64,000 nucleotides of DNA from Trypanosoma brucei (GCA_000002445.1 CH464491.1:4640001-4704000), one strand, 5' to 3'. Counted from the first letter of the stretch, positions 3,603 to 53,700 are shown. Notes: generated from the sequence alone by a model not told the origin. Numbers and translations: made by a program.

Positions 3603-3635
3603 CGCCAGGGAACGAAGCTCAAAGAAAGCGGCGCC

Positions 3636-4834
3636 ATGCAGCTATCCGGTCTAGCAAAAAAAATGGCAGGTGTTGCGGTAAAAGGCATAGCAGCAAAAGC
3701 AGCCAAACTGAAAGACAGTTTTCCGGAGGAAGCTTTGCCAGCAGACGCATCAAAACAAGCGGCAACTGCAGCAGCTAAAAAGCTCCGGGATGCGGCGTTC
3801 GGGGGAGTGGACACAGCACTAAGCACGCTAACTCAGGCAACGACGTTCGGCGGTACACCAGCAAACAACAGGGACGTCGAATGCAAGACACAGGGGCCGG
3901 GCAAAGGCACACATACTGCTCTAGCAGCGCTAGCATGTGTCTGCTGGCAGGGAAACACAAACACGGTGACACACGGTGTATGCAACAAAGCGATGGAAGG
4001 TCAAACAGGTTGGAACGGAAACAGCAACAAACCGGACGCGACGAGCCTTATCAAGCTCGGCAAAAGTTGCGGACCGGCCGGCAAACAAAAGGTAACAGCG
4101 GAGCGAATTCGTGCAGCCGTAAATTCACTGAGGAAGCTTATAACCGGCCACGACTCCGGCAACCTATACCTAGGCACTTTTATCACAACCGATTGCTCAG
4201 GATCAGCAGGAAGCGGTGTCTGCATCGAATTCACAAACTTAGCAGGCGGCACAGAAGACCCGCTGACCAAACTGCCCTGGATCAACAAGGTGGAGGCAGC
4301 GGCAGCCGAACTGGAGAAACTGACGCAGGTTTCGCACAAGGCGCAAGCAATCAACATCAACTAGGAGGAGCAGAAACCGAAGCGAACCAAGCGATCAAAC
4401 AGGCTGTGGCAGAAGCAGAAGAAATAAGTAAAGGTAACAACAACCCGACTGTAGTGGCGCCAGCACTAAGTAAGACAATCTGCGAAGCTCACAACAAGTC
4501 CAAGACGGAATGCCTAGGTGCTCAATGTAAATGGGGTGGCAAAAAGGATGATGACGGCCCATGCATAGTAAATGAAAGCAAAGTTGCAGAACAAACAACC
4601 CAAACAGGGGCAGGAGAAAAGAAAGACGGGGCAGCTTCAAATGGGTGTGCAAAACATGGAACCAATAAGGAGGCTTGTGAAAGTGACAAAACAGGCGACA
4701 AACAAAATTGTGCATGGAGGAAGGGGAAAGATAATGAAGATGACAAAGATACAGAGAAGTGCCGAAATGCTAGTTTTCTAGTAACCAAACAATTAGCCAT
4801 GATGGTTTCTGCATTTATGGCCTTGCTTTTTTAA
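3636..4834 (+). pseudogene. VSG: VSG pseudogene A. It is 5'-truncated exactly at the 5' end of ingi copy L and has an internal frameshift near 4360.
   Basis: ORF 3636-4364 encodes the middle-to-late VSG N-terminal domain (ALACVCWQG, GNLYLGTF, LPWINKVEAAAAELEKL). ORF 3881-4834, in another frame, encodes the cysteine-rich C-terminal domain ending in the GPI signal CRNASFLVTKQLAMMVSAFMALLF. There is no signal peptide, and about 130 N-terminal residues are missing. Confidence 0.9.
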
Positions 4835-4890
4835 AAGAATTTTTTCCCCTCAATTTTTCCTTTGCTAAAATTTTGCTATTTGAAAACTTC

Positions 4891-4906
4891 TGATATATTT
4901 TAACAC
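4891..4906 (+). promoter_or_regulatory. Conserved VSG 3'UTR 16-mer (TGATATATTTTAACAC).
   Basis: Exact match, ~55 nt downstream of the VSG-A stop codon. Confidence 0.85.
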
Positions 4907-5869
4907 CTAAATTCTGCCGAAAAATTAAACTGTTTTTGTAAAGTTTGTGATTCTGTAAATTTTTTGTTTTTCTTGCAACTAAAAGAATTTTTTCTCTTTT
5001 TTTATTCTTTTTTGGAATTTTTTAAGGGTTAGGTTTTTATTTTATGTTTTATGGTTTTTAATATTTTTAATTTTTCATTTTTATTTTATCGATTTTTTCT
5101 TTTTTCATTTTTGTGTTTTTTTAGACGTTCAGGGAAACAAAACCAACTTAAAGCTAAAGAGAAACTAGACAGGGTTAGTGTTATTAATTTTTGTGGGGTT
5201 TTTTCACTTCTTTTCAATTTTTATTCTTCTATAAATCGCTATTTTTTAAATTTTAAGTGATGCAGCGTATCTTTTTTGATGCAACTCTAACCATTATTTA
5301 CCCAGCACACAGCTGCGTCTTCATATTTTTACCTGCACCGTCAACTTGATTTGCTACTTTTTTTGATTTTGTGAATTTCAGCACCTCATTTCGCGTTACA
5401 TGCGGCTTTAAACTTTTTTTATAATGGCTAGCACGTAGAAGTTTCGCTGCTTGAAGCGATTTGCTTTTCAAGAGACGCTAACGAAAAATCTTAATATTTA
5501 GAAGTGGAAGAATATGGAGTTCGGTAGCTAAAGCCAGCTAACATAGCAGCCTGAACCGGTCGTGGCGCGGCACAGCAATTCCAGCCAAAGCAAGCGGATG
5601 CGGCGACCAGTTAACTGCAGCGTCAGCAGGGCAAAGCACGCATAACGCCATGCCACAACAGATCCGGCGGCGGCAGTCGAAGATCTCAGTGCAGGGCCCC
5701 ATAATCACGACAGGCAAAAATCCACCGCAAAAATCAACTAAAAAACACAACAGCTTAGTAATACCCAAGCGAGCACTGCGACTATGATGCCACTAAAAAC
5801 AAATGCAAACCAAACCTGAAACAGTAAAATAAAACACAGCAGCAGGAACAGGAGAGACAAATACCGTGG

Positions 5870-6100
5870 TGACTTGCAGTAAACATCAATCACAGCAAGC
5901 ATGTGAAGCGGAAAACAAGGATTTCAAACCGACTGAGTAAGCAGTATGTGGATGGATAGATTATGTTGACGGCACAGGCAAGCTTCCCAAACCTGAGTGC
6001 CGCTCTTCAAGTTTTTCTTGTCAATGAGAAATCGGCTATGAGTATAGCTGCTGCTTTGACGGGTTTTGCTGCACTCTATAATTATAAAATTATAGTACTT
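5870..6100 (+). pseudogene. VSG: VSG 3' fragment: a frameshifted C-terminal-domain and GPI-signal remnant.
   Basis: Translations across two frames give CSKHQSQQACEAENKDFKPTE ... ECRSSSF / FLVNEKSAMSIAAALTGFAAL. It is followed by an AT-rich 3'UTR-like tail and lies ~300 bp upstream of a 70-bp repeat. Confidence 0.6.
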
Positions 6101-6384
6101 TAAGGATTTTTGTAATTTCATGAATTTTTGTGAAACTCTTCTATGTTGAGAGGATTTGTTAAAATTTTATGAAATTTAATATATTATATTACTTTTTTTA
6201 AATCTTTGCGAAATATGAAAAATAATGAATTGTTTTTTAAAGAATACGTAATTTTTATGCGAAAGTGACCTTCAGAAAAAAGGTGTAACAAAGTAAGGTA
6301 ATGTGGTGTGAAAATGAGTGCTATTCTAATTTGGTTAATTTTTGTTTATTCTTATTCATTTTATAGATGTCAATTGGGACTATA

Positions 6385-6465
6385 AAGATGATAACAATAG
6401 GAGTGTATTGTAAGTGTGTCTTTACTAATATTATAATAAGAGTGGTGGTGGGAGTGACTGAAAAA
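6385..6465 (+). repeat. 70-bp repeat unit, single and degenerate.
   Basis: GATAACAATAGGAGTGTATTGTAAGTGTGTCTTTACTAATATTATAATAAGAGTG, located 1.8 kb upstream of VSG-B. Confidence 0.75.
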
Positions 6466-8292
6466 AAAGGAAACACTTAAACGACGGTATAGTGTAATAA
6501 CATTGAGTTAGTGGAAAGTAATGGGCAGGATTCACCAGGTATATTATTATAAAATAAAGTACTGAGGAACTGACGGGTTATACTCACTATGAAAACAGGA
6601 AATGAACAAAAAATCAACCTAAGAAAGAGCGTACAGGCTGTCTCATAAAGATCTGGAATTTAGTGGGTGCAAGAGACGTAGCTACTACGTTGTACGAACA
6701 AGTATCTACCGGAGGTGCTACTGAAAAAACTAAAAGGAAATATCGTTAACAAAATAAGAATCCGCGGATATAAAAAATGTAGGATCTCTATGAAGTTTGT
6801 AAAATCTATGCTAAAAGTTCCGATTTCCGTGTCTTTATGCTAGTTATATGTTAAGATATTTTAAGTAGTGAGTACCTTTCATGAGAGTGTTGCTTATACA
6901 TGGCTAATGGCGCGTATTAATAAGGAAAAATTTGAGAGGAGGGAACTGTTAGAACTTAAAATGACAAGTCTTAGCGCAAGCAGAATAATCCTAGGACAGA
7001 TAAACTCAAGCATAATCGAATGTTCATCCGTATGTGGAAGGAGCAAAATTGGTAGGTGCCTGTGTTGAAACCATGATATGGAGAAATACAAACAAATATA
7101 AGCAATAAAAAACATTAAATTTGAATTCTTATCTATGGAAATATGTATAGTACTTTCAAGGATGGTTGGACTGGGATTGCCAATGTTAGTTGAAAACAGC
7201 AATAGAAAGAAGGCGATGACATAGAGTTTAAAGTGCAAAAGTGAAAGCTGATGCGCTCGCTTTTTTAAAATTTCAGTAGCGGGATAATATAGAAAATAAA
7301 CAATTGCATTTTTTATTTCCACCTCAAACAAATAGGATTTAAAAGCATTTCACCAGAAAATAGTCTCCAGTTACCAGAAAGCACAAAACCACACAACTTT
7401 TCTCTAATAGAGATACACCGCAATATTATTTTCACACAACTAAAAGAACTCTGGCAACCAAAGCAAAAGCCGGCAAACTAAACTAAGAAATAAAGTCGAT
7501 TGTAAAGCAAGCATAACGACACCCGTCGAGTAGAAAAGCAGCCGCTAATAACCTATAAATCAGAAACAATTGCGCCGCTTCTGTTTGACTGGAAAGAGGT
7601 TTAGGCGGGCAGTGACGGCGGCAGCAGCAAAGCTGCGGGCGTCAAACCATTAGGCAGTGCTCAAGTCCACTAAAAATACTTCCATCAGCAGTTAGCAGAA
7701 ACAACCGCACAAAAACCGACAAGCACTCGGTCAGCTCAAAAACAGTGCACAAAAATGGAGCCAAAGGAAGGAAAGCTCGGTCACCCAACCAAGAAAGATA
7801 CCTTTTATTAGCGATTTCAGGCCATGCCGACAAACTTTTCATAGAAGTATAAGCAAGTTGCTAATTGATACCATACATCTTGGAAGCTCGACGGCGGATA
7901 CGGGGGCAGATGCATCCGACTCTAAGTAAACACAAAATGGAAGCAGATCACGTGATAAAATTTCTCAAAAACAAAAATATGTTTAAGTTGCAACTCCAAG
8001 TTTATGCAGCAACTTACAAAAAATCCGAATAGAAAGATGCTGCTGAAGTTCTGACTGCGTTGGAAAACAAGCCAATCAACAACCCACTAAGTGCTGCAGC
8101 CAACTCTCGTACATCAATTACACTTCCGGTGGTGACACTAGCGACAACGGAGAGCAGTATTCACTAGCCGTGGATGGTACTATCGGCAGACAAAATTAGG
8201 CGCAACTCCAGCCCAAAATCGCGTCAATGCTAAAGAGATTTTACTCGTTGTTTAAACTTTAGAAGGTAGCCCTATCCTTTAAGACACTGCCA

Positions 8293-10012
8293 ATGAAGCA
8301 AGAAAAGTTCATTTATATACTACTATGTTTTTCGGCGTTAGTGACCGTTGCTAACGCAGCAAACAAAAACGAACAAGAATTTGACCAGATGTGCCGGTTG
8401 TACAAGCTTTTAAGCGGCCCCATAACGATACCAGGATTGACTATCAGTCTAAGAAGCGATAGCACAGAGTCAGCCAATCAAATAACGCTCGGCATTTTGG
8501 ACAGAGCCCAAAAGATAAATATGTCAGTGGCAGAGCAACCGATGGTAGAAGTTTTAACGAACGCGGACAAATACAAAAACAAAGCTGCAATCGACGGTGA
8601 CGCCACAAAAAAGGGATATTTCAATCTAAAAGACGATTCCGAACTCGAGAAAATGCGAAACGCCTACAAAGAGGTTCTCGGCGCTCAGGGCGCTGAAAAG
8701 GCGTTTTCCAAAAAGTAAGGCAGAGCGCCAGAAAAAAAAAAGCAAAGGCAGTTACTGCGACCAGCAATGGCAAATCTATACCAAAACTTGGAAAACACCG
8801 CGGTGCTTTGCCAATACATCGAAGAAAAGCTACGGCAAACGATTGCAACGGCCAGGGTGCACATGGGTAAGGCGCTGTACGGCGCCAAGTATGCCGCAAC
8901 ACCAACAGATCTTCTCAGTTCGGCGGCACCACTACCAAAACCGGCTGCAGCAAACTTCCCTTGGCCGACCAGTGCGGACAGAAAAACAGCCTGTGCAAAG
9001 CCAGATGGTGACGACAGCACTAAAGCAGGCAATGCTCTGGCAACAGATGTGGTATGCATATGCATACGCAACCACTCAACCGGCCACGACATATGCGCTG
9101 CAGGGATCAGCCCAGCAGAAGCCAACTTTGCAGCCAGCAGGTCGCCGGCAAATGCGGAGGAAGCCTTCGAAAAAATTGTAGCGAAATGCAAACCAGGATC
9201 CGAGAAAATCACACTGTTAAACATAGCAAGCAAGCTCACAGAGGCTGTCCAAGCGGTGTACACCTGGTTAGGCAAAAATGTATTCACCGCAGCGGTGGCA
9301 AATGGTGAACCAAACGGCGCAGTGAAGCGCTTTAATTTCTATGGCATCACCGCCCTAGGCGGTGCAGCACCGGGTCGCGGGGCGACGGGCGCGACAACGC
9401 ACGCAATAGCAGGGGAAGGGGTGTGCATCGACTATTCTGCCTACCTCAAACCCACTAAAGGAATCCCTTGGATCAACAACATTGAAGCTGTAGCAGCGGA
9501 GCTAAAGAAGGGCAAGGAACTTTTTGCAGAATTGAACAGAGAGCTGGCGAAAGCAGTGGCACAAGAAAGACAAATGGAAACACTGCCGATAGTGTGCACT
9601 TTATTAACCCCAGCAGTAACAACAGCCCCAACAGAAACAAAATACAAGAAACCAACAGTAGAGGAGCAAAATAAATGCAAACTAAAAAACACAATTGCAG
9701 AAGAATGCCCGAGCAAGCACTGCAATTATGATGACACCAAAAAGCAGTGCAAAGCTAAACCAGGAACATAAACCACAGCAGTAGGAACAGGACCAGGAGA
9801 CCAAGCACGAGCACCAACAGGAGCAACTGGATGTGCGACACACAAAGATAAAACCGCTTGTGAAAATGACAAAAAAGATGGTAAGCAAAATTGTGCATGG
9901 ACGAAGGGGAAAGATAATGAAGATGACAAAGATACAGAGAAGTTTCGCTCTTCTAGTTATTTAAAAAAAATTGTACTTATCGTTTCTGGTCTTGCAAGTT
10001 TAGTGAAATTTT
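8293..10012 (+). pseudogene. VSG: VSG pseudogene B, with an in-frame stop at 8716 and frame changes before the C-terminal domain.
   Basis: Signal peptide MKQEKFIYILLCFSALVTVANA. N-domain ORFs 8293-8718 and 8767-9771. C-terminal domain in a third frame (DKTACENDKKDGKQNCAWTKGKDNEDDKDTEK...IVLIVSGLASLVKF). Confidence 0.9.
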
Positions 10013-10204
10013 GAGGATTCATAAAATTTAAGGATTTTTGCTCAATTTTATGAACTTTACTGAAATTTAATATATATAAACACCTTTTGATGCAAGTGCA
10101 CAGCTTTTTAAAATGCATATAATTTTGTATAATTGTGGCCTGTAGGTGTAAAGTAGTAGGGTAATAGCACATGAAGAATGAGTGCTACTCACATTTGGTT
10201 AATT

Positions 10205-10325
10205 TTATTTACATTGTTTATTTTGCGTGCAATAGTTGGGGTAATAATAATTATTATTATTATTATGATATAAGAGTGTTGTGAGTATATAAATACTAAT
10301 ATTACTATAAAAAGAGTTGTGAATG
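10205..10325 (+). repeat. 70-bp repeat: a (TAA)-like run plus the GAGTGTTGTGAGTATATAAATAC core.
   Basis: ATAATAATTATTATTATTATTATGATATAAGAGTGTTGTGAGTATATAAATACTAATATTACTATAAAAAG. It lies ~200 bp downstream of VSG-B and 1.65 kb upstream of VSG-C. Confidence 0.85.
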
Positions 10326-11970
10326 CTAAACAAAAAACTAAAACAGAAGCAGTTAAAACAATGGCAAGGGTGAAATAGGAGTGAGCGAGTGAATGGAGGA
10401 GAGAAGGTACGAGGAATATAATTAAAGAAAGCACAAAAATATAGAGAGTGTATGTAGTGGAGATGGAATGTTTGCAGTTTGAAGCACAAATATAACGATA
10501 CATATCATCATGCACGAGGAAATTATTCCCTGTATTTACTTGAAATGGATAGGTATTATAGCGCTGAAATGGTCGAGCTTAGTTTCAATCTGGTGGCGAC
10601 TCCTAATTTCTATTTGTGAATAATTAAAAGAAAAAGGACGTAACAGAAAGAAAAAACTGGATACGTTTGATGTAACGCAAGAGAATTCTTATCATATATT
10701 GTAATATGCATTAAATTGTGTGTAATATAATATTATCGATAGGAGAACTTTAAAACTTGGACTGTTAGTGGATTACCGTGGCCAGAAAAGAAGATTTAGT
10801 ACATGATGCCGCTCAAAATAGTCCATGCATCAAGTTACAGGGAAATTTATGAAGTAGAGGGAATTAAAGGAAATACACAACAAATTCAGTATTGATATAC
10901 TGGACAGACACTAAGAGCTTTGAAGGATGTGTTTCAGACCCATAACTAACAGTACGTACTAACAAAAGAAAAGCGACAAAAAGCACTTTAATTTTTTTTA
11001 ATTACAGATTCTTATCCAGCTGTTAAACAAATCACAACATATGATCACAAAAAGAAACTTGAGATCAATCGCATCTAGGAGAAACAGCAATGTTACATGG
11101 TTATTTCGAGTCAAAGTGGAATATACGAATCATGATAGGGCAAAATGACTTGCAACACTTAGATGCTAGATGCTTTGTATGTAAAATTTTTTTATAATTG
11201 TTTGTAGAAATGGAGGTGGGAATTGCTGCAAAAAATTAGGTATTTTATAGATTGACAGGGGGCATGTATTGGCTTTTTTAAGGTAGTTATTGTTGAGTGT
11301 GCGAAGTCTAAGCAGAATCTACCACCGAAACTAGTCAAAGTAGAAGTAAAAGGAACAAATCATTCAAACGGACATGATGGCAAAACAGAAAACTCAAAAA
11401 CAAAACAACTGAAACAATGTGACTAACTGCAGCTATAAAAAGATATTTGGCTAAATAATGAACATTCCGATACGACACAGAAAGCAAATGCTACGTATTT
11501 ACAACAAAATGGTTAAAAGTAGCTGAACAAATTGAAAAGAAACTTGTATTAATTCAGAAACAAAAAGAAGCTGTAGAAATCGACTATAACTTTAAAGAAG
11601 AGAAACGATGGAAACGTGTCAAGGACAAGGAAACCAGTCCACAGAGTAAAGAGGGTAACGAGAAAACCAAAAAAAAGCAGAAAGGTCACAACTGAACGCC
11701 AGGAACGTAAATTAACAACGTCTCTGCTAAATACCAAAAGAATTTTATATCAAACAATAAGGTGATTGTTTTTCGATCGAAAATTGGCATCGACAGTGCC
11801 AAAGCGGCTCAGGGGAAAAGAAACTTACATTTTAAATTAAAAAGAGCAGTTAGAAGCGATCATAGAACGATAACGCGAGCGACTGAGAAGCCGTTACACT
11901 GGAGTGGGAGAAACCACCACTTCTGTACCCCACCAGTGACTTTGTTACAGACAAAAGTTTAAGCAAGAGA

Positions 11971-13425
11971 ATGAACCGACTGCACCTAACAGCTATTTTA
12001 GTAATAAAAGCAGTCTTTGTTGGCGCTGAAGACGCCAAAGAGACAGATCTGACAACAGTCTGCCATGCAGCCATTTACTTAGCAGCACTTGAAGAACAGC
12101 TGTCGACAGAAGTAGAGGCCGCGAAAACTGATGTAACTGAACTGGACAACCAGCGCCGTAGGCTAACTTTGGCGGCCGAAATAGGAAGCGGTACCGACGC
12201 CGGCTGCTTGTTAGCGGCCGCAGCGGCGGCGGCGGCACAGCACACCAAAGAAGCATCAGAGGCAATAAATACTGCAATAAAAACCAAAGTTGAAGCCCTA
12301 AAACATCTAGCTCAATTCACAAAAACAGCGGAAGCAGCAGTAAAAATGTCAAACACAGAATTCTAAATCGGCAACAGCGCCCACAAAAAAGCGAGTGGCA
12401 CGACAACAGAACACAAGATGACACCAAAGATCAAAGCCCAATATCCATGCGTAGTTAAAAAGAGTGACAACAAATGGCAAACGGGAGGAAAAGAAATCAA
12501 GCCGAAACAAATAGCCAAATTTGTCACACCTGACAGTGAGACGATTTTAAAAAACCTAAACCCCGCGGTCATAACGGTGACCTACAATAGCGTCTGCGGC
12601 GGCGGAACAAGCTGGACGACGTGGACCGCTGCGCGAACGAGTTGCGGCATAAACGACGTCAGCAGTGTAGCCAACGGACCAACGGCCAAGCCGGCAGAAG
12701 CACCCGACGCCACGACAGGCAAACTTAAGAAACTCAAAATTTACAAAAGCGACAACCCTGAACGAGGGTGCGAGACGGAGACAAACAATGAAGGCAGCAC
12801 AAACGACGAGAAGAAAAGTCTTTACAAAATCTGCAAAGCACTAACAACTGGAATAAAAATGCCAACACCTCTAGACCTCACAGGGGCAGCTCTATCAGAA
12901 ATTCCTATAGTCAAACAAGTGGCAAAAGGCTGTCTCCGGCAATACAAAGACAAAACGGAAATGAAGCCAGCAGATAAGGAGAAGCTAACTGCATTTCTCA
13001 AAGACGCTTATACTGATTCTACAACCAAATTTGAAGCAAAGTTAAAAAAACTACTCGCGGATACAAAAATCCAAGTCTACAGGGGCGGCAAGGTACAGCC
13101 CGTTACAATCGACACTATCATCGACGACAGCGAAGAGCACGATGCATTATCCAGGCTTCGAGTAATTCGGGCCACAGCAACACTCGCATCGGACAAGAGT
13201 GTTGACACGACAAGCCAAATAGAATTAGGAAACAACGAAGGAGATAAAAAAGATGGGGATAATAAAACAAACACAGCTGATTGCACAGGCACTGAAGAAG
13301 GTAAATGTGACAAGACAAAATGCGATTGGAACGATGAGAAAAAACAGTGCAAAGTTAAAGAGGGAGCAGTTGTTATTTCTGCTGCAATCAAGGTCCTTCT
13401 TTTCCCTGCATTTTTGCTTTTCTAA
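11971..13425 (+). pseudogene. VSG: VSG pseudogene C, with an in-frame stop at 12363 that splits the N-domain.
   Basis: Signal peptide MNRLHLTAILVIKAVFVGA. ORFs 11971-12366 and 12418-13425. C-terminal domain CTGTEEGKCDKTKCDWNDEKKQCKVKEG plus GPI signal AVVISAAIKVLLFPAFLLF. Confidence 0.9.
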
Positions 13426-13464
13426 AGGAAATTTCCTCCTCATTTTTTCCACGCTGAAATTTTC

Positions 13465-13480
13465 TGATATATTTTAACAC
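13465..13480 (+). promoter_or_regulatory. Conserved VSG 3'UTR 16-mer (TGATATATTTTAACAC).
   Basis: Exact match, ~40 nt after the VSG-C stop. Confidence 0.85.
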
Positions 13481-13649
13481 TTTCTAGTAAAAATGTGAAA
13501 TTTTTCAAAATTATGAGAATTTAAAAATATGAAACTTCGACATAGTGCGCAACACTAGCATATAGGTATAAAGTATCAGAGTGATAGGATATGAAAAATG
13601 AATACTATTATAAATTTTTTACAAACTTGTTTTATTTTGTTTAGATTTG

Positions 13650-13800
<151 letters not shown>

Positions 13801-16990: not shown

Positions 16991-16998
16991 CCCTGGCG

Positions 16999-37506: not shown

Positions 37507-37583
37507 CTAGTTCGATTCATCTGCTTGAATGTGTAACTTGTTAGTTTGATGCTGTATGCTTGCTTGTCTTAGCCACCCTGGCG

Positions 37584-39986: not shown

Positions 39987-40012
39987 GAGTAACATTCCAG
40001 TGTCTGCAAGGA

Positions 40013-42379: not shown

Positions 42380-42837
42380 AGTCCTCACCTAAGGTAACAG
42401 TCATACAACCCACTCTCCCTTCTGCAACTTCCCCCCTTATTGCCGAGTGTGGAGCTAGCAGGAAAAGCACCGGACGCGGGAGTAGTCCAGACACCCTCAG
42501 AGACAGAGGAGGTATGCAGTCAGCAAGCAACAAAAACAGAAAGAGGGAGAGGGGGAGAGAATAATAAACAAATAACAAAAATCAAAACAAAAGGACTGCT
42601 AATTGACATCTTTTGGAGAGTCCGGGGTGGGGGGCTTCTCGCCCCATCTGCTGTATTCTGTTCAACTGCGGAGCTACAACAAAAATTATAGAGGGTGTGT
42701 TAGGATGAATAAAAAAAGGGAGACTCTGCCACAGTCGCCAGACCGATAGCATCTCAGGGCTCTACGGTGATGGCTGATGGCCGCGCCAGTGGGGGGAAAC
42801 TCTCACGAAGGCACGAAGAAAATTCCAAAAAAAAAAA

Positions 42838-43491: not shown

Positions 43492-46400
43492 GGTGCCCAG
43501 CTCATCGGTGCAGACGCTAACGCACACGCTTTGGCATGGGATCGCGCGAGCCCACCAAATACCAAGGGTGAAACCCTCACACAGTGGTGCATTGACAACC
43601 AGTTTCTGGTCTGAAACACTGGTGAGTGCACCAGGTACGCGCGCCACCACGGGGAGTCCACCCCTGATGTGACAATATCAAGGAATTGCACAGTGTACAC
43701 GTGGACATCGCTGTATTCTCCCGATAGTGATCACCATCACATATTTTTTGACGTTATCGTTGGAGACGACACAGATGCACTGAGTTGCCCGCGGCTTCGA
43801 AAGCCCATGTACGCATGGCTAAAAGCTGACTGGAGGAATTTCCGTCTCAAGGTTGACGAGCTCTGCAGGAAAATTGGTAGGGAGAAGAACGTCAACACCC
43901 TGGAACAGAAATTGAGCTCCACCATCCGCATTGTGACGAAGGTTTTCGTCCCCCGTGGCTGCAGAGCAACCCCACCACATTGGACACCTGAGCTCGCGAA
44001 ACTCAATGAAGAGATCGCTGGATGCGGACCCTCCCATCGAAGGGAAAAGTTGGTAGCCACGCGTAAGCAGATACTGGACCGTACCACAAAGAAGAGATGG
44101 AGCACGCTATGCTCCAGACTTGCGGTGTCAGACCGCTGCAGTTGGCACATTGTCAAGAAAGTATATGCGCCACGACCACTAACCACACCGGCTGTACTTG
44201 TTGATAACGCGGCCATCACGGACTACCGTCAAGCTGAGAGGTTCATTAAACTGTACTCGTCTTGCGCAAGAAGACACCCCGACTCACACCCACCGGCACC
44301 CATAAAGACGATATAGCGAGTGAGTTCAGTCCCATCACGATGGCTGAACTATGGAGATCGATCAAACTGCTACCGAGTGGATCCGCAGCAAGAACTGATT
44401 GCTTACACAACGAGGCACTGCAACATCTCGGCAGAACAGCGCTGAATGTTGTTCTGAGGCTATTCAATGAGAGCCTACGAACGGGAGTCGTGTCGCCTCC
44501 ATGGAAGACTGGTGTTATCATCCCCATCCTGAAGGCCGGAAAAAAGGCGGAGGACCTCGAATCTTACAGGCCTGTGACGCTCACGAGCTCTCTTCAAAGT
44601 CATGGAGCGCATCATTGCCACGAGGCTTAGAGACATTGTTGAGTTCCAGCTGACGCCGCAGCAATCAGGCTTTCGCCCCGGATGCTCAACGCTCGAACAA
44701 CTCCTGCACGTCCGCGCTGCCCTCTGCCGTCCCACGCACAAATATCGTACGGGTGCTGTATTTGTCGACTACGAGAAGGCATTTGATACAGTAGAACACA
44801 ACAGAATTGCGAGGGAAATGCACAGAATGAAGGTATCACCCCACATTTTGAAGTGGTGCGTATGATTTCCGAGTAACCGAACTGGCAGAGTGAGATTCAA
44901 GGAGAAGCTTTCCAGAAGCAGAACATTTGAGCGAGGAGTGCCACAAGGAACTGTCCTTGGCCCAATCATGTTCATTATTGTCATGAACTCGTTGAGCCAA
45001 CGCCTTGCAGAAGTGCCGTTACTGCAGCACGGATTCTTTGCAGACGACCTGACGCTACTTGCGAGGCACACAGAGAGGAATGTCATCAACCACACAGTAC
45101 AATGCGGTCTCAACGTGGTGTTACAGTGGTCAAAAAAGGACTTTATGTCTGTCAACGTAGCGAAAACAAAGTGCACACTCTTCGGGTGTATAGAGCGCCA
45201 CCCCCTTACATTACAACTGGACGGCGAAAGAATAGGAGCTGACAGGACACCGAAGCTTCTAGGAGTAACATTCCAGTGTCTGCAAGGAATGGCAACACAT
45301 GCGGCAGAGACAAGACGCAAGATGGACTTCAGACTACTGCAGATAGCAGCCATCTCAGCTTCTACATGGGGGCCAAGACGACAAGTACTGAGAGCTTTTT
45401 ATCTAGCACTCGTACAGGCACACACCATGTATGGCATTGAGGTATGGTACTGGGACGCTTCGGAACGAAGTCGCGATCTCCTTTCAGCAGCACAACACAA
45501 AGCCAGTCGAATCATAGCTGGCATACCGCATGGGACGCGCAAAGAGGACTCTCTGCTGGAAGCAAACCTCCTGCCACTCAAGACGACCACTCTTGTGCGC
45601 AGCATGAAATTCATGCTGATGTGTGAGTCACGAGGCGGATGTTTGCGGCGCAGTGCTGAGGAAGTATACCACAGAAAACACCCAGACAGAGTCTTACATT
45701 CCCGCATCATGCGGTCTTATCCCCACCTCCGCATTGAGCCACGCGAGCACCCACTAGAGACATCGACGCTCCGCCACAGCTGCCGACCGCTATTTCACAC
45801 GCAGATAAAGCCTGTGTGCGCTGATGACTCTGACGGTGTCAAAAGGGAGGCTTCCGAAAAGTGGATTGCACGGCATTTTGCACGGAGGGGGAAGAGCGAC
45901 CGCGGCGAGAGCACTAAGAATTGTGAACTGATGGATCCGGTCCCTCGGGAGNNNNNNNNNNNNNNNNNNNNNNNNNNNNNNNNNNNNNNNNNNNNNNNNN
46001 NNNNNNNNNNNNNNNNNNNNNNNNNNNNNNNNNNNNNNNNNNNNNNNNNNNCCGCGCCGCCGGAGAGTCATGAGAACCTCATAGGTTTGGTATNCACGGG
46101 CAACCACTTTTCCAACAAAACATAAAGAAGAACTGACGAGGGAAGAAGAAACGGGACTGGAACGCTTTCGGGTTGGGTCTTCAAGACACTATGGATGGAT
46201 GTTGCGAAAGATCAACCCGAGTGTGCCTCCACAGTGCCGATGGTGTAACCCGCAACATGCAGCGATCGGGCCAACAATACAAACAGCCTCAACTGTTGCG
46301 ACACGTACTCTTCAGAGAACCTCCGAACCGACCAAATGTACGGAATGTGATGCCACATACCAATGCCGCTCGAGTGCTGTAACGCATATGGTAAACAAAC

Positions 46401-47768
46401 ATGGCTTTATGCGAGCTGATGCCCTCCGGAGGATCAAATACGGCGATGCAACACCTGCAGTGGACATCCCCCCGGAGCCCCCTCCAGTGGTGGCGATTGT
46501 TCCTCTACCATCGAGCACACGAGTCCCGATGAGACCGCAGGTGCTTCATTGTACCCTCTGTGCCTCCAAATTCGCAGTGCCAGGCCGACTATTACACCAC
46601 CTTCAAACAATACATGGCATAGGTAGCGGTAGTTGCCGCGTGGAAAGGGGGCGAGAAAACGAGGACTCATTGCAAGGAGATGGTAGAGCCCCAGCAGCGC
46701 CAGCCCCTCAGGATACACGGAAGCTGCCGTTTCAATGTGACCTGTGCGAGGCGAGCTTCGGTACACGCTCTTCCCTGTCACTACACAAGAAATTCAAACA
46801 TAAGAGCATAGTGACGGAGGACGGTACCGTGGTGGTGGTGCAAATCCCTCGTAAGCGTGCCCGTGAGGGAAACGTTGACGTCCCGGGGAAAGGCGAGGTG
46901 CAGTGTGGTGTGTGCCAAAAAGTGCTCAGTTGCAGGGACTCCCTCATCCGACACTGTAAGGCTTTCCACAAAGGTGAGGGAATCGAGCTTAAATGCAGCA
47001 AAAGCACAAAATTGTGTGCCACTGATTCCCCGCATACAAACGCATCCATGTTGGTGTGCCCGACATGCGGAAGTCAGTGTGCTAGCAAAACTGGCCTCAC
47101 CCTATATCAAAAGAAGATGCACGGTATGAAGGTAGAGCACGCTGTTACCAGCCAACGCGGCGACTGCGAAGAAACGTCACTGCACTTGATGAGCTGTCCC
47201 GGTTTGAAGGAGTTACGTGTCAGGTTTGCGGTAGAAAGTGTGTGTGTGCAGGATGTATGTTTCTTTAAAAGGCTGGCGCAGTTTCTCATTGCGGTTGAAC
47301 GGAGCAGGCCGCAGGTGAAGTCTTCCCCTAATGTAACAGTCATACAACCCACTCTCCCTTCTGCAACTTCCCCCCTTATTGCCGACTGTGGAGCTAGCAG
47401 GAAAAGCACCGGACGCAGGAATAGTCCAGACACCCTCAGAGACAGAGGGGGTATGCAGTCAACAAGCAACAGAAACAGAAAGAGGGGAAGAGAATAATAA
47501 ACGAATAACAAAAATCAAAACAAAAGGATTGCTAATTGACATCTTTTTGAGAGTCCGGGGTGGGGGGCTTCTCGCCCCATCTGCTGTATTCCGTTCAACT
47601 GCGGAAATACAACAAAAATTATAGAGAGTGTGTTAGGCTGAATAAAAAAGGGAGAATCTGCCACAGTCGCCAGACCGATAGCATCTCAGGGCTCTACAGT
47701 GATGGCTGATGGCCGCGCCAGTGGGGGGAAACTCCCACGAAGGCACGAAGAAAATTCCAAAAAAAAAA
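43492..47768 (+). mobile_element. ingi copy 3, forward portion from ingi nt ~642 to the poly(A). It includes a 100-N gap at 45952-46051.
   Basis: Starts GGTGCCCAGCTCATCGGTGCAGACGCTAACGCACACGC (ingi APE ...GAQLIGADANAHA). Pol ORFs 43669-44316, 44262-44865, 44890-46125 and 46199-47497 (zinc fingers). The 3' RIME-half ends in poly(A) at 47768. Confidence 0.93.
45952..46051. other. Assembly gap (100 N) inside ingi copy 3. About 440 bp of ingi sequence is expected here.
   Basis: The flanks correspond to ~20095 and ~20540 of copy 1. Confidence 0.9.
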
Positions 47769-47869
47769 GTCCGCTGCCAGCCTGTACTTTTTCTGTATCT
47801 TCAGTAGGTCCTGCCTTTGTGTACGCCGCCTGCTGATTCCTGCTGTGAGTTCCTTCTGTAGCTCAGTCA

Positions 47870-48031
47870 AATAAACTCCTCCTTGCGGACGTCCGTTATC
47901 TGGTCCGGGCCAGTGTCAGCATCGGTTATGGCTGCCCCTGCCGCCGGGTCTGTCGCGGACAGCAGTGCTAGCGCCGTTGCAGCCGCGGCCAACAGCTGCT
48001 CCGAGCTTCTTGAGCTTTTTACTTCGTTCAT
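47870..48031 (-). pseudogene. VSG: Putative VSG 5' fragment (signal-peptide region), cut off by the 3' end of ingi copy 3.
   Basis: Minus-strand ORF MNEVKSSRSSEQLLAAAATALALLSATDPAAGAAITDADTGPDQITDVRKEEFI*. It is GC-rich relative to its surroundings. It starts 1.75 kb from the reversed 70-bp repeats at 49780-50100, which is the spacing seen for every other cassette here. No diagnostic VSG motif is present. Confidence 0.4.
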
Positions 48032-49779
48032 CACTTAACCTTCACCTGGATGGTAAATGAATTAATAAATGAACTATGGATTTAGTGCAAGTGTCGATGT
48101 TTTCTCCGCATTTTCCGTAAAAAAAAAACAGATTTCCACTGTGAACCAAAATGTAGGGCAGACATCCAACGCTTTTTCGGAGGCACCTGATATGTTCGTG
48201 GAGCCACTTCTTCAGGTCTTGTTTGCTGGCTGAGTGTGTCGCTTCCTGGATACTGTATCTTGAATATCTGACTCAATCTATTGTCGGGAAAACTGACCTC
48301 TACCTGCCTTGTGCACCTTTTACTTTTGATTGTCGTCTTTGATTTCAGGTTCGTGTATTGTCGTAGAAATTTGTATGTTTTTTGTCTAACTTTACTAGCT
48401 ACTGCAATTGCCTTTCTTCTAAAGAAGAAATTTTCGATAGAAAATTTTGTTAATCTTTGATCCCCAGTTGTTTCAAATTTTCTCTCATTCTGTTTAACCT
48501 TCCTTTTTTTGGTCACCTATTTCCTTTACTCAAGAATTCAGTCTCTACGATTTGAGAGCTACGTTGAGGGTGTCTCCATGGGTGAGAATTCTGTTAAAAA
48601 CACGCAGTTTAATAGCAATTTTTCTGCTTTCTATTGCAATGTGTTTCACTCCGCATCTATATCTATTGCTTCTATTGCTGAATAAGTCTAATTCTTTTCT
48701 GCTATAAAACCTGATTCTTTTATATAAACTTGGTTATTAAAATCTTATGGTTTCTACTGTGGTCTATTTTCCTGTAAATTTGGCTTGTTACTTTTAAATT
48801 CATTTACAATGTAACGTCTGCGCATAGTCCCCGACCGTGCGTCCAGGCTAGGATTCCTTCGAACAACGACTGTTTCGAGGCTGATTGTGCAAGTGGCATT
48901 ATAGTCAATTTTACAACTACCTTGGCTTCTTCGAAACCTTTATTCTAGTTATTAAATGGGTTCAGTTTGAACTTAATATTTAGCGAACAAACATTTTATG
49001 CAGGTTAATCTTTGGACCTGTGCCAGCATGGAAATAGTGTAGATTTTATACCAACTATATCTACTTCACAACCCTTTCCAGAAGATTCATACATGTGCTA
49101 ATTTAATCATTTTCCGCGTCTTTATTCTACTTTTTTGTTTTTCAATGGTAATCAATTAGAATTACTGGTTTCAACATTCTTCTTTCCGATAGAATTATAT
49201 TGTTTTCCACAAATTTTAGTGTGTACTAGTATATCTGATGAAAACATTTCTTTAAATTTACCTGACACTTACCTATTCTCTTTCTCCTTCTCCATTTATT
49301 GATTTTTTTCACAACCGTACATTAGGATCTGACATCAGCTTAAATTTCCATTCAACACCATTTTTGCAGCAACATCTATCCACTTCTGTGTGAAATGTGG
49401 GACATCACAGGTTTATTCTCATGTATTATCTTCTTAGTTCTGGACTCTCATGTCTACTGTCTTTTTATTTAGTTTTTTCTTTCCTTGTCTTCCGTTTTCT
49501 TTCACACACCTTGGGATAACATCACTGCCCCATATGGCATGTACACATTCCACTCTGTCACTCCTTAATCTCATTGTGTATGATGATGCTCATCATCATT
49601 TTTGTGCATGCAACTGTACATATTCTATCTCCTTCATCATATCCCTCTTTGTATTTCGGCGTTTCAACTAATAATATTACACTTTCTTCCTCACTGTATT
49701 ACCACCTTACTGCCATTACACCCTTGTACATTGTTTCAAGTGCATCTTATAGAGGGTCATTTAGCCTACACCACCACTA

Positions 49780-50100
49780 TTATTATAATATTTGTATATA
49801 CTCACTCACAACACTCTCCTATTATTACTATCATCATTATCATTATCATTATTATTATCATTACTGCTGTTATTATAATATTCGTATATGCACTCTCACA
49901 ACACTCTCCTATTATTATTATGATTACTATCATTACTGTTCTTATTATAACATTCGTATATACACTCTCACAACACTTTCCTATTATTATTATCATTATT
50001 ATCATTATTATTATTATTACTGCTCGTATTATAATATTCGTATATACACACTCACCACACTATACTATTATTATTATTACTATTATAATCCTAAATAATA
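49780..50100 (-). repeat. Array of four 70-bp repeat units, reverse orientation.
   Basis: Four tandem copies of …TATAATATTCGTATATACACTCTCACAACACTCTCCTATTATTATTAT…, separated by ATT/ATC runs. Confidence 0.9.
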
Positions 50101-50336
50101 TCCATAAAATAGACAGAATTTTATATTATCACTCATTTACTATACTCCAATATCATGTTATTTTACACTCATATGCCACTTTCATAGAAATATTTATTAT
50201 TCTAAAATTTTTGACATTTTTATCGATAGTGTTAATATATCGAAAAATTTAGCAAACTTTTTCAAATTCTCACAAACGGATAATTTCACTAATTTCATAA
50301 AATGATTCAAAAAGCTTTTACCAAAAATTCTTTAAA

Positions 50337-50724
50337 ATGTTATGCTATAATCAAAAAAGCAAGTACAAGAGGAGCCTTGTTAATTACAAATGAGTTGCTT
50401 CCTGTGGTGTTTGTGTTTTTTCCACCATTCTCTACTTTCGCCCCACCTTTTGCTACGCACTCATCTTCCTTATATTCACATTTATCGCTGTTGCACTCGG
50501 TTGCAGTGTTGCCCTTGCATATCTTAGGTTGCTGTTCTGTTGGCTCCTTCTTGGACTTCGCAACTAACTGCTGAGCCATGTGTTGACCTTGCAAATAGCT
50601 TAGTGCTACATCGCCTTGAGGGGTGCCTGCTAGGCTTTTTATTTTCCCTTTCGCTGCATTGTCCCCCTGGCCGTACACAATCTCTTCGTCTTCGACCGCC
50701 TTAACAAATTTGTTTTGGAAGTTG
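50337..50724 (-). pseudogene. VSG: VSG 3' fragment (C-terminal domain plus GPI signal), separated from its 5' part by ingi copy 4.
   Basis: Minus ORF …ICKGNTATECNSDKCEYKEDECVAKGGAKVENGGKNTNTTGSNSFVINKAPLVLAFLIIA*. Its upstream end runs directly into the poly(T) (reverse poly(A)) of ingi copy 4. Confidence 0.8.
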
Positions 50725-53700
50725 TTTTTTTTTAAATTTCCTTCGTGCCTTCGTGGGAGTTTCCCCCCACTGGCGCGGCCATCAGCCATCACTGTAGAGC
50801 CCTGAGATGCTATCGGTCTGGCGACTGTGGCAGAGTCTCCCTTTTTTATTCAGCCTAACACACTCTCTATAATTTTTGTTGTAGCTCCTCAGTTGAACGG
50901 AATACAGCAGATGGGGCGAGAAGCCCCCCACCCCAGACTCTCTAAAAGATGTCAATTAGCAATCCTTTTGTTTTGATTTTTGTTATTCGTTTATTATTCT
51001 CTTCCCCTCTTTCTGTTTCTGTTGCTTGTTGACTGCATACCCCCTCTGTCTCTGAGGGTGTCTGGACTATTCCTGCGTCCGGTGCTTTTCCTGCTAGCTC
51101 CACGGTCGGCAATAAGGGGGGAAGTTGCAGAAGGGAGAGTGGGTTGTATGACTGTTACATTAGGGGAAGACTTCACCTGCGGCCTGCTCCGTTCAACCGC
51201 AATGAGAAATTGCGCCAGCCTTTTAAAGAAACATACATCCTGCACACACACACTTTCTACCGCAAACCTGACACGTAACTCCTTCAAACCGGGACAGCTC
51301 ATCAAGTGCAGTGACGTTTCTTCGCAGTCGCCGCGTTGGCTGGTAACAGCGTGCTCTACCTTCATACCGTGCATCTTCTTTTGATATAGGGTGAGGCCAG
51401 TTTTGCTAGCACACTGCCTTCCGCATGTCGGGCACACCAACATGGATGCGTTTGTATGCGGGGAATCAGTGGCACACAATTTTGTGCTTTTGCTGCATTT
51501 AAGCTCGATTCCCTCACCTTTGTGGAAAGCCTTACAGTGTCGGATGAGGGAGTCCCTGCAACTGAGCACTTTTTGGCACACACCACACTGCACCTCGCCT
51601 TTCCCCGGGACGTCAACGTTTCCCTCACGGGCACGCTTACGGGGGAATTGCACCACCACCACGGTACCGTCCTCCGTCACTATGCTCTTATGTTTGAATT
51701 TCTTGTGTAGTGACAGGGAAGAGCGTGTACCAATGCTCGCCTCGCACAGGTCACATTGAAACGGCAGCTTCCGTGTATCCTGAGGGGCTGGCGCTGCTGG
51801 GGCTCTACCATCTCCTTGCAATGAGTCCTCGTTCTCTCGCCCCCTTTTGACGCGGCAACTACCGCTGCCTATGCCATGTATTGTTTGAAGGTGGTGTAGT
51901 AGTCGGCCTGGCACTGCGAATTTGGAGGCACAGAGGGTACAATGAAGCACCTGCGGTCTCATCGGGACTCGTGTGCTCGATGGTAGAGGAACAATCGCCA
52001 CCACTGGAGGGGGCTCCGGGGGGATGTCCACTGCAGGTGTTGCATCGCCGTATTTGATCCTCCGGAGGGCATCAGCTCGCATAAAGCCATGTTTGTTTAC
52101 CATATGCGTTACAGCACTCGAGCGGCATTGGTATGTGGCATCACATTCCGTACATTTGGTCGGTTCGGAGGTTCTCTGAAGAGTACGTGTCGCAACAGTT
52201 GAGGCTGTTTGTATTGTTGGCCCGATCGCTGCATGTTGCGGGTTACACCATCGGCACTGTGGAGGCACACTCGGGTTGATCTTTCGCAACATCCATCCAT
52301 AGTGTCTTGAAGACCCAACCCGAAAGCGTTCCAGTCCCGTTTCTTCTTCCCTCGTCAGTTCTTCTTTATGTTTTGTTGGAAAGTGGTTGCCCGTGATACC
52401 AAACCTATGAGTGTTCTCATGGACTTCTTCCGACATAAGCACTCGCTTCGCATAAGCAATGATGTCGGGGATCCATGTGACTCGCAACTGTGGTAAATCA
52501 GCGGCCTTTTTCGCCATTTCGTCACAAACCTCATTCGGTTTCACGCCACAATGGCCAAACACAAATTGCAGTCGGATACGCATCTTTCTTCTCTGAACTT
52601 GAAGCAGAAGCCTCCATAGTCGTCTCAGAATTGGGTCCGTTACGGCTAGAGAGCCTGTCTGCAGTGCTGTTAACATTGACAGCGAGTCAGAGAAGATGGA
52701 CAACCTGCTCGGTGTGCTTCTGTATGCCGGAAGCCATTTCAGCAGCCGTTGCAGTCCTATCTCTAATGCTACGCATTCCGCTCTGTAACTGCATGAGAGT
52801 TCCCCTGCTCCGGTTTTGAGTGCACAAATCAGCGTGTTGTTTCTATAGAGCAGGGCAGCTGCCCCGGACTTCTCACCGAGGGACACGGATTCATCAGTTC
52901 AAAATTCGTAGTGCTCTCGTCGCGGTGACTCCTTCCCCCTCCGTGCAAAATGCCGTGCAATCCACTTCTCAGAAGCCTCCCTTTTGACATCGTCAGGGTC
53001 ATCAGCGCACACAGGCTTTATCTGCGTGTGAAATTGTGGTCAGCAGCTGTGGCGAAGCGTCGATGTCTCTAGTGGGTGCTCGCGTGGCTCAATGTGGAGG
53101 TGGGGATAAGACCGCATGATGCGGGAATGTAAGACTCTGACTGGGTGTTTGCTGTGGTATACTTCCTCACCACTGCGCCGCAAAAATCCGCCTCGTGACT
53201 CACACATCAGCATGAATTTCATGCTGCGCACAAGAGTGGTCGTCTTGAGTGGCAGGAGGTTTGCTTCCAGCAGAGAGTCCTCTTTGCGTGTTCCATGTGG
53301 TATGCCGGCTATGATGCGACTGGCTTTGTTTTGTGCTGATGCAAGGAGGTCGCGACTTCGTTTCGAAGCGTCCCAGTACCATACCTCAATGCCATACATG
53401 GTGTGTGCCTGTACGAGTTCCAGATGAAAAGCTCTCAGTACTTGTCGTCTTGGCCCCCATGTAGAAGCTGAGATGGCTGCTATCTGCAGTAGTCTGAAGT
53501 CCATCTTGCGTCTCGTTTCGGCCGCATGTGTTGCCATCCCCTGCAGACACTGGAATGTTATTCCGAGAAGCTTCGGTGTCCTGTCAGCTCCTATTCTTTC
53601 GCCGTCCAGTTGTAATGTAAGGTGATAGCGCTCTATACACCCGAAGAGTGTGCACTTTGTTTTCGCTACGTTGACAGACATGAAGTACTCTTTTGACCAC

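Follow-up and report, generated by a model that had tools for sequence, protein, structure and literature searches.

The window analyzed here, a stretch of 64,000 nucleotides, belongs to the silent VSG array on chromosome 11 of T. brucei TREU927 (4,640,001-4,704,000). Self-BLAST of this window detected five copies of ingi together with a nested ingi piece and a RIME, and ingi elements have been described within VSG arrays before (PMC3553974). The features are collected in Table 1, with positions counted from the first letter of the window.

Table 1. Retroelements, VSG genes and VSG fragments of the window
Feature	Position	Strand	Description
ingi copy L	1-3610	(-)	element positions 1-3610 visible; 5' end at 3610
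VSG-A	3611-4834	(+)	B-type pseudogene, 5'-truncated; C-terminal domain present; conserved 3'UTR 16-mer at 4891
VSG-B	8293-10014	(+)	B-type pseudogene, frameshift
VSG-C	11971-13425	(+)	A-type pseudogene, two ORFs
VSG-D	15570-16990	(+)	A-type; cut ~45 bp short of expected stop by c1 5' end
ingi copy c1	16991-22241	(+)	5251 bp, full length
array intergenic DNA	22242-23094	(-)	distal cassette upstream region, 70-bp-repeat-like stretch, VSG-E 3'UTR
VSG-E	23095-24640	(-)	B-type pseudogene
VSG-F	26403-27906	(-)	B-type pseudogene
VSG-G	30183-31707	(-)	B-type pseudogene
VSG-H	32750-34313	(-)	B-type pseudogene
VSG-I	36054-37520	(-)	full-length pseudogene, heavily frameshifted; stop at codon 8
ingi copy c2	37576-42838	(+)	full length
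inverted ingi 5' piece	42839-43491	(-)	element positions 1-653; directly between c2 poly(A) tail and c3
ingi copy c3	43492-47768	(+)	element positions 642-5251; N gap 45952-46051
putative VSG-K 5' fragment	47769-48031	(-)	~88 codons, one frameshift; cut by c3 poly(A) end
VSG-J 3' fragment	50340-50724	(-)	last 128 codons: N-domain end and C-terminal domain; cut by c4 poly(A) end
ingi copy c4	50725-55186	(-)	element positions 635-5251, internal deletions; ends at N gap 55187-55286
RIME	55485-55988	(+)	ingi 1-247 and 5004-5251; non-VSG GC-rich DNA on both sides
ingi copy c5	57640-62790	(-)	full length; no VSG flank

All ingi junctions in the window lie at canonical termini, i.e. CCCTGGCGATGC... 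at the 5' side or poly(A) at the 3' side, and every ingi copy starts with CCCTGGCGATGCCGGCCACCTCAACGTGG and ends in an A-run. The elements resemble Tbingi/TbRIME (ingi4 subclade) in their length of 5.25 kb, in the RIME halves at their ends, in the 5' signature CCCTGGCGATGCCGGCCACC... and in the poly(A) tail. Like Tbingi, they encode endonuclease, reverse-transcriptase and RNase H domains, with Pfam matches to Exo_endo_phos_2 (1.4e-10; APE-type), RVT_1 (4e-43), RNase_H (7e-10) and zf-C2H2 (4e-5). Copies L, c1 and c2 are catalogued as ingi in the TREU927 dataset, where copy L is entered as a complete element (chr11 4,638,357-4,643,610). In the case of c1, the reverse transcriptase, RNase H and zinc finger ORFs are degenerate; c2 has an 808-aa ORF with endonuclease and reverse-transcriptase domains. 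Unlike in Tbingi, the ORFs are broken in all copies of the window, which are thus old and inactive. The RIME (~500 bp) consists of two halves (55485-55732, ingi 1-247; 55737-55984, ingi 5004-5251) followed by a poly(A) run to 55988, and its flank is also found on chr8 at 862,642 in the dataset.

Pfam VSG_B, Trypan_glycop or Trypan_glycop_C matches were obtained for VSG A, B, D, E, F, G and H, and a weak, sub-threshold Trypan_glycop match for VSG-C (E = 0.007). GPI-signal tails are present in VSG B, F, G, H, I and J, and the conserved VSG 3'UTR 16-mer occurs eight times against 0.8 expected. For the VSG-J fragment, homology to the C-terminal sequence of a VSG was detected (E = 1.5e-9). As judged from its sequence, fragment K would be a plausible VSG N-terminus: its 88 codons include a signal peptide, its N-terminus is A-type-like, its best match within the window is the equivalent position of the VSG-C N-terminus (weak, E = 0.14), and upstream it shares homology with the corresponding region of VSG-F, consistent with a cassette context. 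Neither a Pfam match nor a database homologue was found for this fragment. Pseudogenes account for two-thirds of the VSGs in arrays (PMC3467770) and, like that silent archive, the window holds truncated VSGs devoid of start, C-terminus or upstream region amid frameshifted full-length pseudogenes. Unlike in the archive in general, the four truncations (VSG A, D, K and J) and the one upstream-region loss (VSG-I) are each traceable to an ingi terminus.

The initial annotation held that every ingi/VSG junction falls inside or within ~65 bp of VSG coding sequence (CDS) and named five of them, whose coordinates were all exact to the base. Clear VSG sequence flanks four of these (A, D, I and J), but the generalization to every junction fails at the c1 3' end (22241|22242), which was omitted there and lies in cassette upstream/intergenic DNA; the nearest VSG CDS, ending at the VSG-E stop (23095), is 853 bp away. 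The copy L junction (3610|3611) is situated in the VSG-A N-domain as proposed, its flank beginning at position 119 of 352 of the Pfam VSG_B profile (E = 5e-40). The c1 5' junction (16990|16991) is likewise in the VSG-D C-terminus: the alignment with VSG-C reaches the junction, in the GPI-signal part, ~45 bp before the expected stop. The c2 5' junction (37575|37576) is indeed just upstream of VSG-I, although the ATG is at 37520 and the only upstream sequence left is 55 bp (37521-37575) and not 65. The c3 3' junction (47768|47769) adjoins fragment K, a plausible VSG flank. The c4 junction (50725|50724) is inside VSG-J. It had been assigned to the C-terminal domain but falls where the N-domain ends, as the first cysteine of the C-terminal domain lies ~57 codons further downstream. 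As for the other element ends, no VSG sequence was found at the flanks of c5 and RIME, the c2 3' end and the c3 5' end are both within another ingi, and the c4 5' end is lost in the N gap.

The window is similar to RHS (retrotransposon hot spot) genes in that ingi ends lie inside a subtelomeric multigene family. However, in RHS genes ingi/RIME occupy one fixed in-frame position, and among the TREU927 dataset flanks many are RHS-type sites (GTPGIGKS coding region) with the consensus TGGTGTTGGCT. No fixed insertion hot spot of this type was found among the five VSG junctions, which fall at five different cassette positions (N-domain codon ~120, GPI signal, 5'UTR, codon 88 and N-domain end). Elsewhere in the genome, two VSG C-terminal domains (dataset flanks f20 and f25) may represent a fixed insertion site.

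Ingi and RIME show 12-bp target-site duplications and a relative site specificity (PMC3820030, citing Bringaud et al. 2004). An empirical insertion-site matrix was derived from 83 non-redundant TREU927 ingi/RIME flanks, with the loci of this window left out, giving the consensus A(-34), TGSnGTnGGnT at -26 to -16 and T(-12). Like Tbingi, the 5' flanks of the window fit the conserved pattern 13-26 bp upstream, re-derived here from the 83 genomic flanks. The inspection of junction flanks for an insertion-site consensus, suggested in the initial annotation, gave matches among the 62,590 possible array sites: copy L scored 10.0 (rank 3; 80th percentile of true sites), c1 at VSG-D 9.3 (rank 8; 77th percentile) and c2 at VSG-I 5.2 (rank ~193, top 0.3%; 45th percentile). 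Scores of the further flanks were 8.3 (RIME), 3.8 (c5) and -6.0 (nested inverted piece). Because of these ranks, the L, c1 and c2 5' junctions are taken as genuine endonuclease-chosen insertions. In the TREU927 dataset, the identical 100-bp VSG-D flank with a complete ingi is also present on chr9 at 203,525.

Of the non-ingi array positions, 44.8% are VSG CDS, or 0.48 with 65-bp margins. The binomial probability of at least five of six junctions in or near CDS is then 0.09, and that of at least four of six strictly in CDS is 0.25; CDS hits by the junctions are not beyond chance. By the matrix, good target sites are predicted to be as dense in VSG CDS as in the intergenic DNA of the array: CDS accounts for 0.43-0.58 of them at all thresholds vs 0.448 of positions. 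The proposed bias of insertion or retention toward VSG CDS was consequently not borne out, although with a sample of six junctions, five of which lean to CDS, a modest real bias is possible. Chromatin/nucleosome accessibility or recurrent target motifs in conserved VSG codons might cause such a preference, which would fit the five junctions within CDS or at most 55 bp off it. A rough look at ~16 other array-located 5' flanks of chromosomes 9 and 11 points in the same direction, with ~9/16 (~56%) appearing VSG-coding and just two AT-rich intergenic, in a classification that was subjective and in which Pfam backed only 2 of 10 peptides. Moreover, in the two diverged C-terminal domains at f20 and f25, a RIME 5' fragment follows the same '..VC(C/R)WIxxIxG' codons, and the DNA of these sites (TGCnGnTGGAT) fits the target consensus (scores 8.3 and 10.2). 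Nevertheless, 9/16 is no different from 45%, the 65-bp margin was picked post hoc, and an intergenic location is plain for junction 22241|22242 as well as for several dataset flanks (f43, f66). Together with the window probabilities of ~0.09-0.25 and the equal target density, this makes a real preference for VSG CDS highly improbable. That most junctions are in or near CDS is probably a small-sample result of the 45% coding density, and no targeting rule.

Target-site duplications were compared as 12-bp flanks. Own-flank pairs matched at 6 of 12 positions at most, and all 36 combinations at 7 of 12 at most, with one exception: the c2 3' flank and the 5' flank of the inverted piece, the nested pair, agree at 12 of 12. 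These 12 bp, GGTGCCCAGCTC (element positions 642-653), are present twice, at 42839-42850 (reverse complement) and 43492-43503. The nested copy thereby has one target-site duplication like that of Tbingi, whereas the five array copies and the RIME are each without their own. The left and right flanks of any one ingi copy were never two halves of one VSG and are not colinear; c1, for instance, has a (+) VSG tail on one side and a (-) cassette upstream region on the other. The copies are also mosaic, the identity of one pair swinging from 93% to 99.4% along its length (c2 vs c3, 94.8% at 1499-1998 and 99.4% at 1999-2498; c3 vs c4, 93.6% to 99.4%). In addition, the plus-strand genes VSG A-D are enclosed by the inverted pair L(-)/c1(+), the remaining VSGs are all on the minus strand, and a flip between inverted ingi segments is seen at the nested c2/inverted piece/c3 locus.

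The absent 12-bp duplications, the non-colinear flanks and the mosaic copies therefore suggest that later ingi-ingi recombination (inversion, deletions) split the flank pairs. We read the missing duplications as a secondary loss through inter-element recombination and not as non-membership in ingi. The earlier view of ingi copies as preferred recombination substrates and breakpoints is thus supported inside the ingi bodies, but the VSG|ingi junctions themselves, with exact termini and consensus target sites, are not breakpoints. Ectopic recombination of ingi/RIME is reported to cause rearrangements in T. brucei (PMC2854126), and the window is similar in that copies in inverted and in direct orientation lie on either side of an inverted gene block and of deleted segments, are mosaic and have exchanged flanks. 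Unlike in the reported cases, we infer the rearrangements here, within the silent VSG array of one strain. Analogues in other organisms are Ty- and L1/Alu-mediated rearrangements.

Flank linkage over the 5.2-kb repeats rests on the TREU927 assembly, and both mosaicism and missing duplications could partly be assembly chimeras. In that case the junctions would be real, and the flank pairing, strand switch and mosaics would come from mis-joined or collapsed repeats in a Sanger-era subtelomere. The window does contain four 100-N gaps and two single Ns, with one gap within c3 and one within c4, the contig 46052-55186 starts and stops inside inverted ingi copies, and the copies are 94-98% identical over more than the read length. 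However, a single gap-free contig (1-25874) covers L, VSG A-D, c1 and the next 3.6 kb rightward, a second contig (29765-45951) contains the junctions of c2, the inverted piece and c3, and a divergence of 2-6% suffices to separate copies in clone-based finishing. The position of junctions in CDS is in any case independent of linkage across ingi copies. Overall, we regard an assembly artefact as quite unlikely.

Altogether the pattern is probably ordinary, known biology, namely insertion into a ~45% coding array followed by recombination between copies. Firstly, ingi would have inserted by endonuclease-dependent target-primed reverse transcription into the silent subtelomeric VSG array, where a hit on a gene would cost little, since nearly all array genes are already pseudogenes. 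Each VSG|ingi junction would be one surviving half of an insertion. Secondly, homologous recombination and gene conversion among the 5.2-kb copies would have parted both flanks of each insertion. From the logic of the flanks we infer an inversion between L and c1, the head-to-head pair, which would have left VSG A-D as the sole plus-strand genes of the array, and two losses of array DNA, by recombination between direct copies or at insertion. The first loss (~1.2 kb) would have taken VSG-A codons 1-120 and the proximal upstream region, and the second (~3.5 kb) the region upstream of VSG-I as far as and including the 3' part of VSG-K. As an outcome, VSG fragments now adjoin intact ingi ends.

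Alternatively, the array DNA could have been lost at insertion itself, in single retrotransposition events with large target-site deletions, as known for mammalian L1. When the L x c1 inversion is undone, the c1 flanks (VSG-A codon 120 and distal cassette upstream DNA) line up on the minus strand, lacking ~1.2 kb between them; those of the compound formed by c2 and c3 (VSG-I at -55, VSG-K codon 88) are also colinear, with ~3.5 kb missing, and absent target-site duplications would be consistent with such events. On the other hand, the strand switch and the c1 flanks on opposite strands need an extra inversion, the mosaic copies and the nested-element flip show ingi-ingi recombination at work here, and we know of no report of ingi target deletions. 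Loss at insertion is accordingly an unlikely account of the missing segments. Recombination between two elements, the preferred reading, predicts reciprocal junctions in which poly(A) is followed by TTGAGCTTCGTT, ACCTCTTATGTG or TTGTCTTAGCCA, and reciprocal ingi 5' ends after GTCCGCTGCCAG, CAACTTCCAAAA or TGTTCTTCTATT; no reciprocal partner junction is present within the window.

Beyond the window, it is very doubtful that ingi/RIME junctions in VSG arrays are enriched in CDS genome-wide beyond target-site availability. A possible cause of such an enrichment is that conserved VSG codons, e.g. those of the C-terminal-domain 'C-x-W-I' (TGCnGnTGGAT), recreate the recognition pattern of the ingi endonuclease. 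If the enrichment were true, ingi would systematically give rise to VSG fragments and recombination anchors within the antigen archive.

Self-comparison resolved five copies of a 5.25-kb repeat, together with a 653-bp inverted piece and a 0.5-kb element composed of the repeat's two ends. Because of its opening sequence, CCCTGGCGATGCCGGCCACC..., and its terminal poly(A), the repeat was identified as the ingi retrotransposon; its broken ORFs encode an APE-type endonuclease, a reverse transcriptase, an RNase H and a C2H2 zinc finger, and the 0.5-kb composite of its ends is RIME. The DNA between the repeats consists of VSG genes and pseudogenes (Pfam VSG_B, Trypan_glycop and Trypan_glycop_C matches), with the usual features of VSG cassettes, namely a conserved 3'UTR 16-mer (8 found against 0.8 expected) and AT-rich, 70-bp-repeat-like spacers. 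Long (TAA/ATT)n tracts at 25588-26151 and 29231-29942 lie inside the 70-bp-repeat regions separating the cassettes, each interrupted by a 100-N gap; the spacers there may differ in length from the assembly. That VSG arrays contain ingi is established (PMC3553974), as is the fact that array VSGs are mostly pseudogenes with truncations (PMC3467770).

The initial annotation had placed every ingi/VSG junction of this array within or near VSG coding sequence (CDS), and its five junction coordinates are all exact. In the case of ingi copy L, the 5' end indeed falls in the N-domain of VSG-A; the VSG resumes at position 119 of the 352 in the Pfam profile, and no stop interrupts its frame as far as the junction. 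The 5' end of copy c1 falls, as described, in the VSG-D C-terminus, about 45 bp before the expected stop, and the alignment with VSG-C reaches the junction. The 5' end of copy c2 is just upstream of VSG-I, at a distance of 55 bp (ATG at 37520) and not 65 bp. Copy c4 does end in a VSG fragment (VSG-J) at its 3' side, but at the end of the N-domain instead of within the C-terminal domain; the junction adjoins the final 128 VSG codons, with homology to VSG C-terminal sequence at E = 1.5e-9. At the 3' end of copy c3 the coordinate holds, while the VSG identity of the adjoining 5' fragment, VSG-K, is weakly supported: the fragment has 88 codons and a signal peptide and occupies the expected VSG start position in the cassette, a homologue search with it gave no matches, and Pfam at E <= 10 gave nothing useful for VSG-K, the fragment VSG-J or the VSG-D tail. 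An exact protein look-up of five window ORFs, one of them across the c1 junction, matched no record.

The word 'every' did not survive. The 3' end of c1 lies in upstream/intergenic cassette DNA, with the nearest CDS 853 bp away. A VSG remnant at this flank (a minus-strand GPI-signal-like peptide, LNKKVTLHSVNADFL) was considered and rejected, as it showed no similarity to window VSGs and no Pfam match. Furthermore, the junctions of copy c5 and of RIME are in non-VSG DNA, the c2 3' end and the c3 5' end are both inside another ingi, and copy c4 disappears into an N gap before its 5' end. The c4 contig stops at element position 635 (55150-55286), a few bases past the nested-insertion site 642-653 of c3, and the 198 bp that follow the gap (55287-55484) have no match elsewhere within the window.

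With CDS boundaries set by start codons and GPI-signal stops, VSG CDS amounts to 44.8% of the candidate positions available in the array outside ingi (31.7 kb), and by arithmetic from the same boundaries to about 48% with 65-bp margins. Five of six junctions lie in or near CDS (binomial P = 0.09, using a 65-bp margin that is post hoc, picked once the data had been seen), and four of six lie strictly within it (binomial P = 0.25). In this sample of six, the CDS-junction pattern is within chance. Altogether, the earlier observation is largely accurate, overstated, and not beyond chance.

To stand in for the insertion-site consensus that Bringaud et al. 2004 published for ingi, an empirical matrix was built on 83 non-redundant flanks, with the window's own loci left out. 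The flanks came from the PMC4660242 supplement, which gives 100 bp upstream of every TREU927 ingi/RIME. Copies L, c1, c2 and c5 each have their 5' flank there verbatim, which locates the window on TREU927 chromosome 11 (NT_165288) at 4,640,001-4,704,000. The resulting pattern (A at -34; T-G-S-n-G-T-n-G-G-n-T at -26 to -16; T at -12) agrees with the conserved pattern published for the DNA ahead of the 12-bp target-site duplication (PMC3820030). When the flanks were checked against this matrix, those of L, c1 and c2 fitted it. Their ranks among all possible insertion points on the array's two strands mark these junctions, therefore, as genuine endonuclease-selected sites and not random breakpoints.

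Ingi junctions with VSG or cassette DNA (window positions) and insertion-site matrix results
Junction	Position	Matrix score	Percentile among true sites	Rank of 62,590
L 5' end	3610	10.0	80th	3rd
c1 5' end	16991	9.3	77th	8th
c1 3' end	22241/22242			
c2 5' end	37576	5.2	45th	~193rd
c3 3' end	47768			
c4 3' end	50725			

A matrix scan found VSG CDS and intergenic array DNA equally rich in good target sites, with CDS taking a share of 0.43-0.58 across thresholds and 0.45-0.49 by probability mass. The sequence preference of the enzyme therefore predicts no CDS bias. With matrix targets even in both compartments and P = 0.09 for five of six junctions, the proposed bias of insertion or retention towards VSG CDS is unsupported.

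A rough wider sample took in about 16 further 5' flanks assigned to the chr9 and chr11 arrays, where we take them to lie. About 9 translate VSG-like, 2 are AT-rich intergenic and 5 other or unknown; the 56% that are VSG-like are no different from 45%, in a classification that is subjective, because Pfam backs only 2 of 10 short flank peptides. A 3-mer logistic classifier of VSG CDS against intergenic DNA was rejected as a CDS caller and served as no more than a rough guide: its grouped cross-validated accuracy was only 83.5%, and it placed the VSG-D flank, lysine-rich sequence from the C-terminal domain, in the wrong class (P = 0.15).

Two diverged VSG C-terminal domains bear truncated RIME 5' fragments directly past '..VC(C/R)WIxxIxG' (PMC4660242 supplement 1, rows NT_165288 37564 and 113874, chunk coordinates). 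The coding DNA there, TGCnGnTGGAT, agrees with the matrix pattern for insertion sites (8.3 and 10.2), and VC(C/R)WIxxIxG may be a recurrent ingi/RIME target in VSG C-terminal domains. The 100-bp VSG-D/ingi flank (16891-16990) is found identically ahead of a complete ingi at TREU927 chr9 203,525-208,778, and the flank of the window's RIME (55385-55484) also precedes a RIME at chr8 862,642. Rather than being unique events, these junctions are therefore portions of segmental duplications shared between chromosomes.

Ingi and RIME are known to recombine and to cause rearrangements (PMC2854126). No element has a 12-bp target-site duplication in its own flanks, with no own pair above 6/12. Pairing each 5' flank with each 3' flank (36 pairs in all), also across copies in search of exchanged duplications, gave 7/12 at best, save for one exact pair, that of a nested locus. 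The two flanks of one copy are never both halves of a single VSG. Copy c1 links a plus-strand VSG tail with a cassette upstream region on the minus strand, an arrangement that is beyond what a single insertion can make. VSG-A to VSG-D (3611-16990) are the sole plus-strand VSGs and are bounded exactly by L(-) and c1(+), inverted head to head and the most identical pair of copies (98-99% over the first 1.5 kb). Such an arrangement suggests that ingi-ingi recombination between L and c1 inverted 13.4 kb of DNA. Reversing that inversion would put every VSG on the minus strand; c1 would then have VSG-A codon 120 on one side and distal cassette upstream DNA on the other, in colinear order but short of about 1.2 kb. 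The c2-c3 compound, in a similar way, lies between VSG-I position -55 and VSG-K codon 88, again in colinear order but short of about 3.5 kb.

Among the copies at 16991-62790, the identity of one pair can shift from about 93% to 99.4% across adjacent 500-bp windows; c2 and c3, for example, share 94.8% at 1499-1998 and 99.4% at 1999-2498. Such mosaic copies indicate gene conversion or crossing-over, or else assembly mixing. The rearrangement history is one that we infer, and since two of the four 100-N gaps in the window fall inside ingi copies, flank linkage across the repeats rests on the assembly. The initial annotation had alternatively seen ingi copies as preferred substrates and breakpoints of cassette rearrangements. 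Their role as recombination substrates is supported, with the correction that the breakpoints lie inside ingi bodies and the VSG/ingi junctions are original insertion sites. If two-element recombination is true, reciprocal junctions would show TTGAGCTTCGTT, ACCTCTTATGTG or TTGTCTTAGCCA after a poly(A) tail, or GTCCGCTGCCAG, CAACTTCCAAAA or TGTTCTTCTATT ahead of an ingi 5' end (CCCTGGCGATGC).

At the nested locus, ingi 1-653 comes right behind the c2 poly(A) in reverse complement, and ingi 642-5251 comes next. The 12 bp GGTGCCCAGCTC (ingi positions 642-653) occur exactly on either side of the inverted piece, a duplication of canonical target-site-duplication length. In the simplest history, one ingi would have landed inside another in reverse orientation, and a flip would later have taken place between the inverted 5' segments of 653 bp. 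Twin priming could also have produced the inverted 653-bp piece; we rank it below nested insertion and flip because the overlap has exactly the 12-bp target-site-duplication length. The nested target site has a poor matrix score (-6.0).

The 5' flank of c5 (62791-64000, minus strand) is a degenerate ORF whose motifs (AMRLAWVTASRWGEI..., HSIKGG) resemble those of tyrosine recombinases. Homologues of it in T. theileri, T. grayi and T. vivax carry the annotation trans-sialidase, probably wrongly; one has a weak Phage_integrase match (E = 0.07). The ORF is probably a VIPER/DIRS-like retroelement remnant.

If VSG CDS really were a target of ingi, the element would serve as a built-in mutagen and a recombination scaffold moulding the archive of immune-evasion antigens. 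The evidence points the opposite way, to ordinary consensus-site insertions into an array that is nearly half coding, with the copies later shuffled by recombination. The biology is already known, and this one locus offers a clean worked example of how ingi copies fragment VSGs, switch strands and delete DNA within a subtelomeric array.
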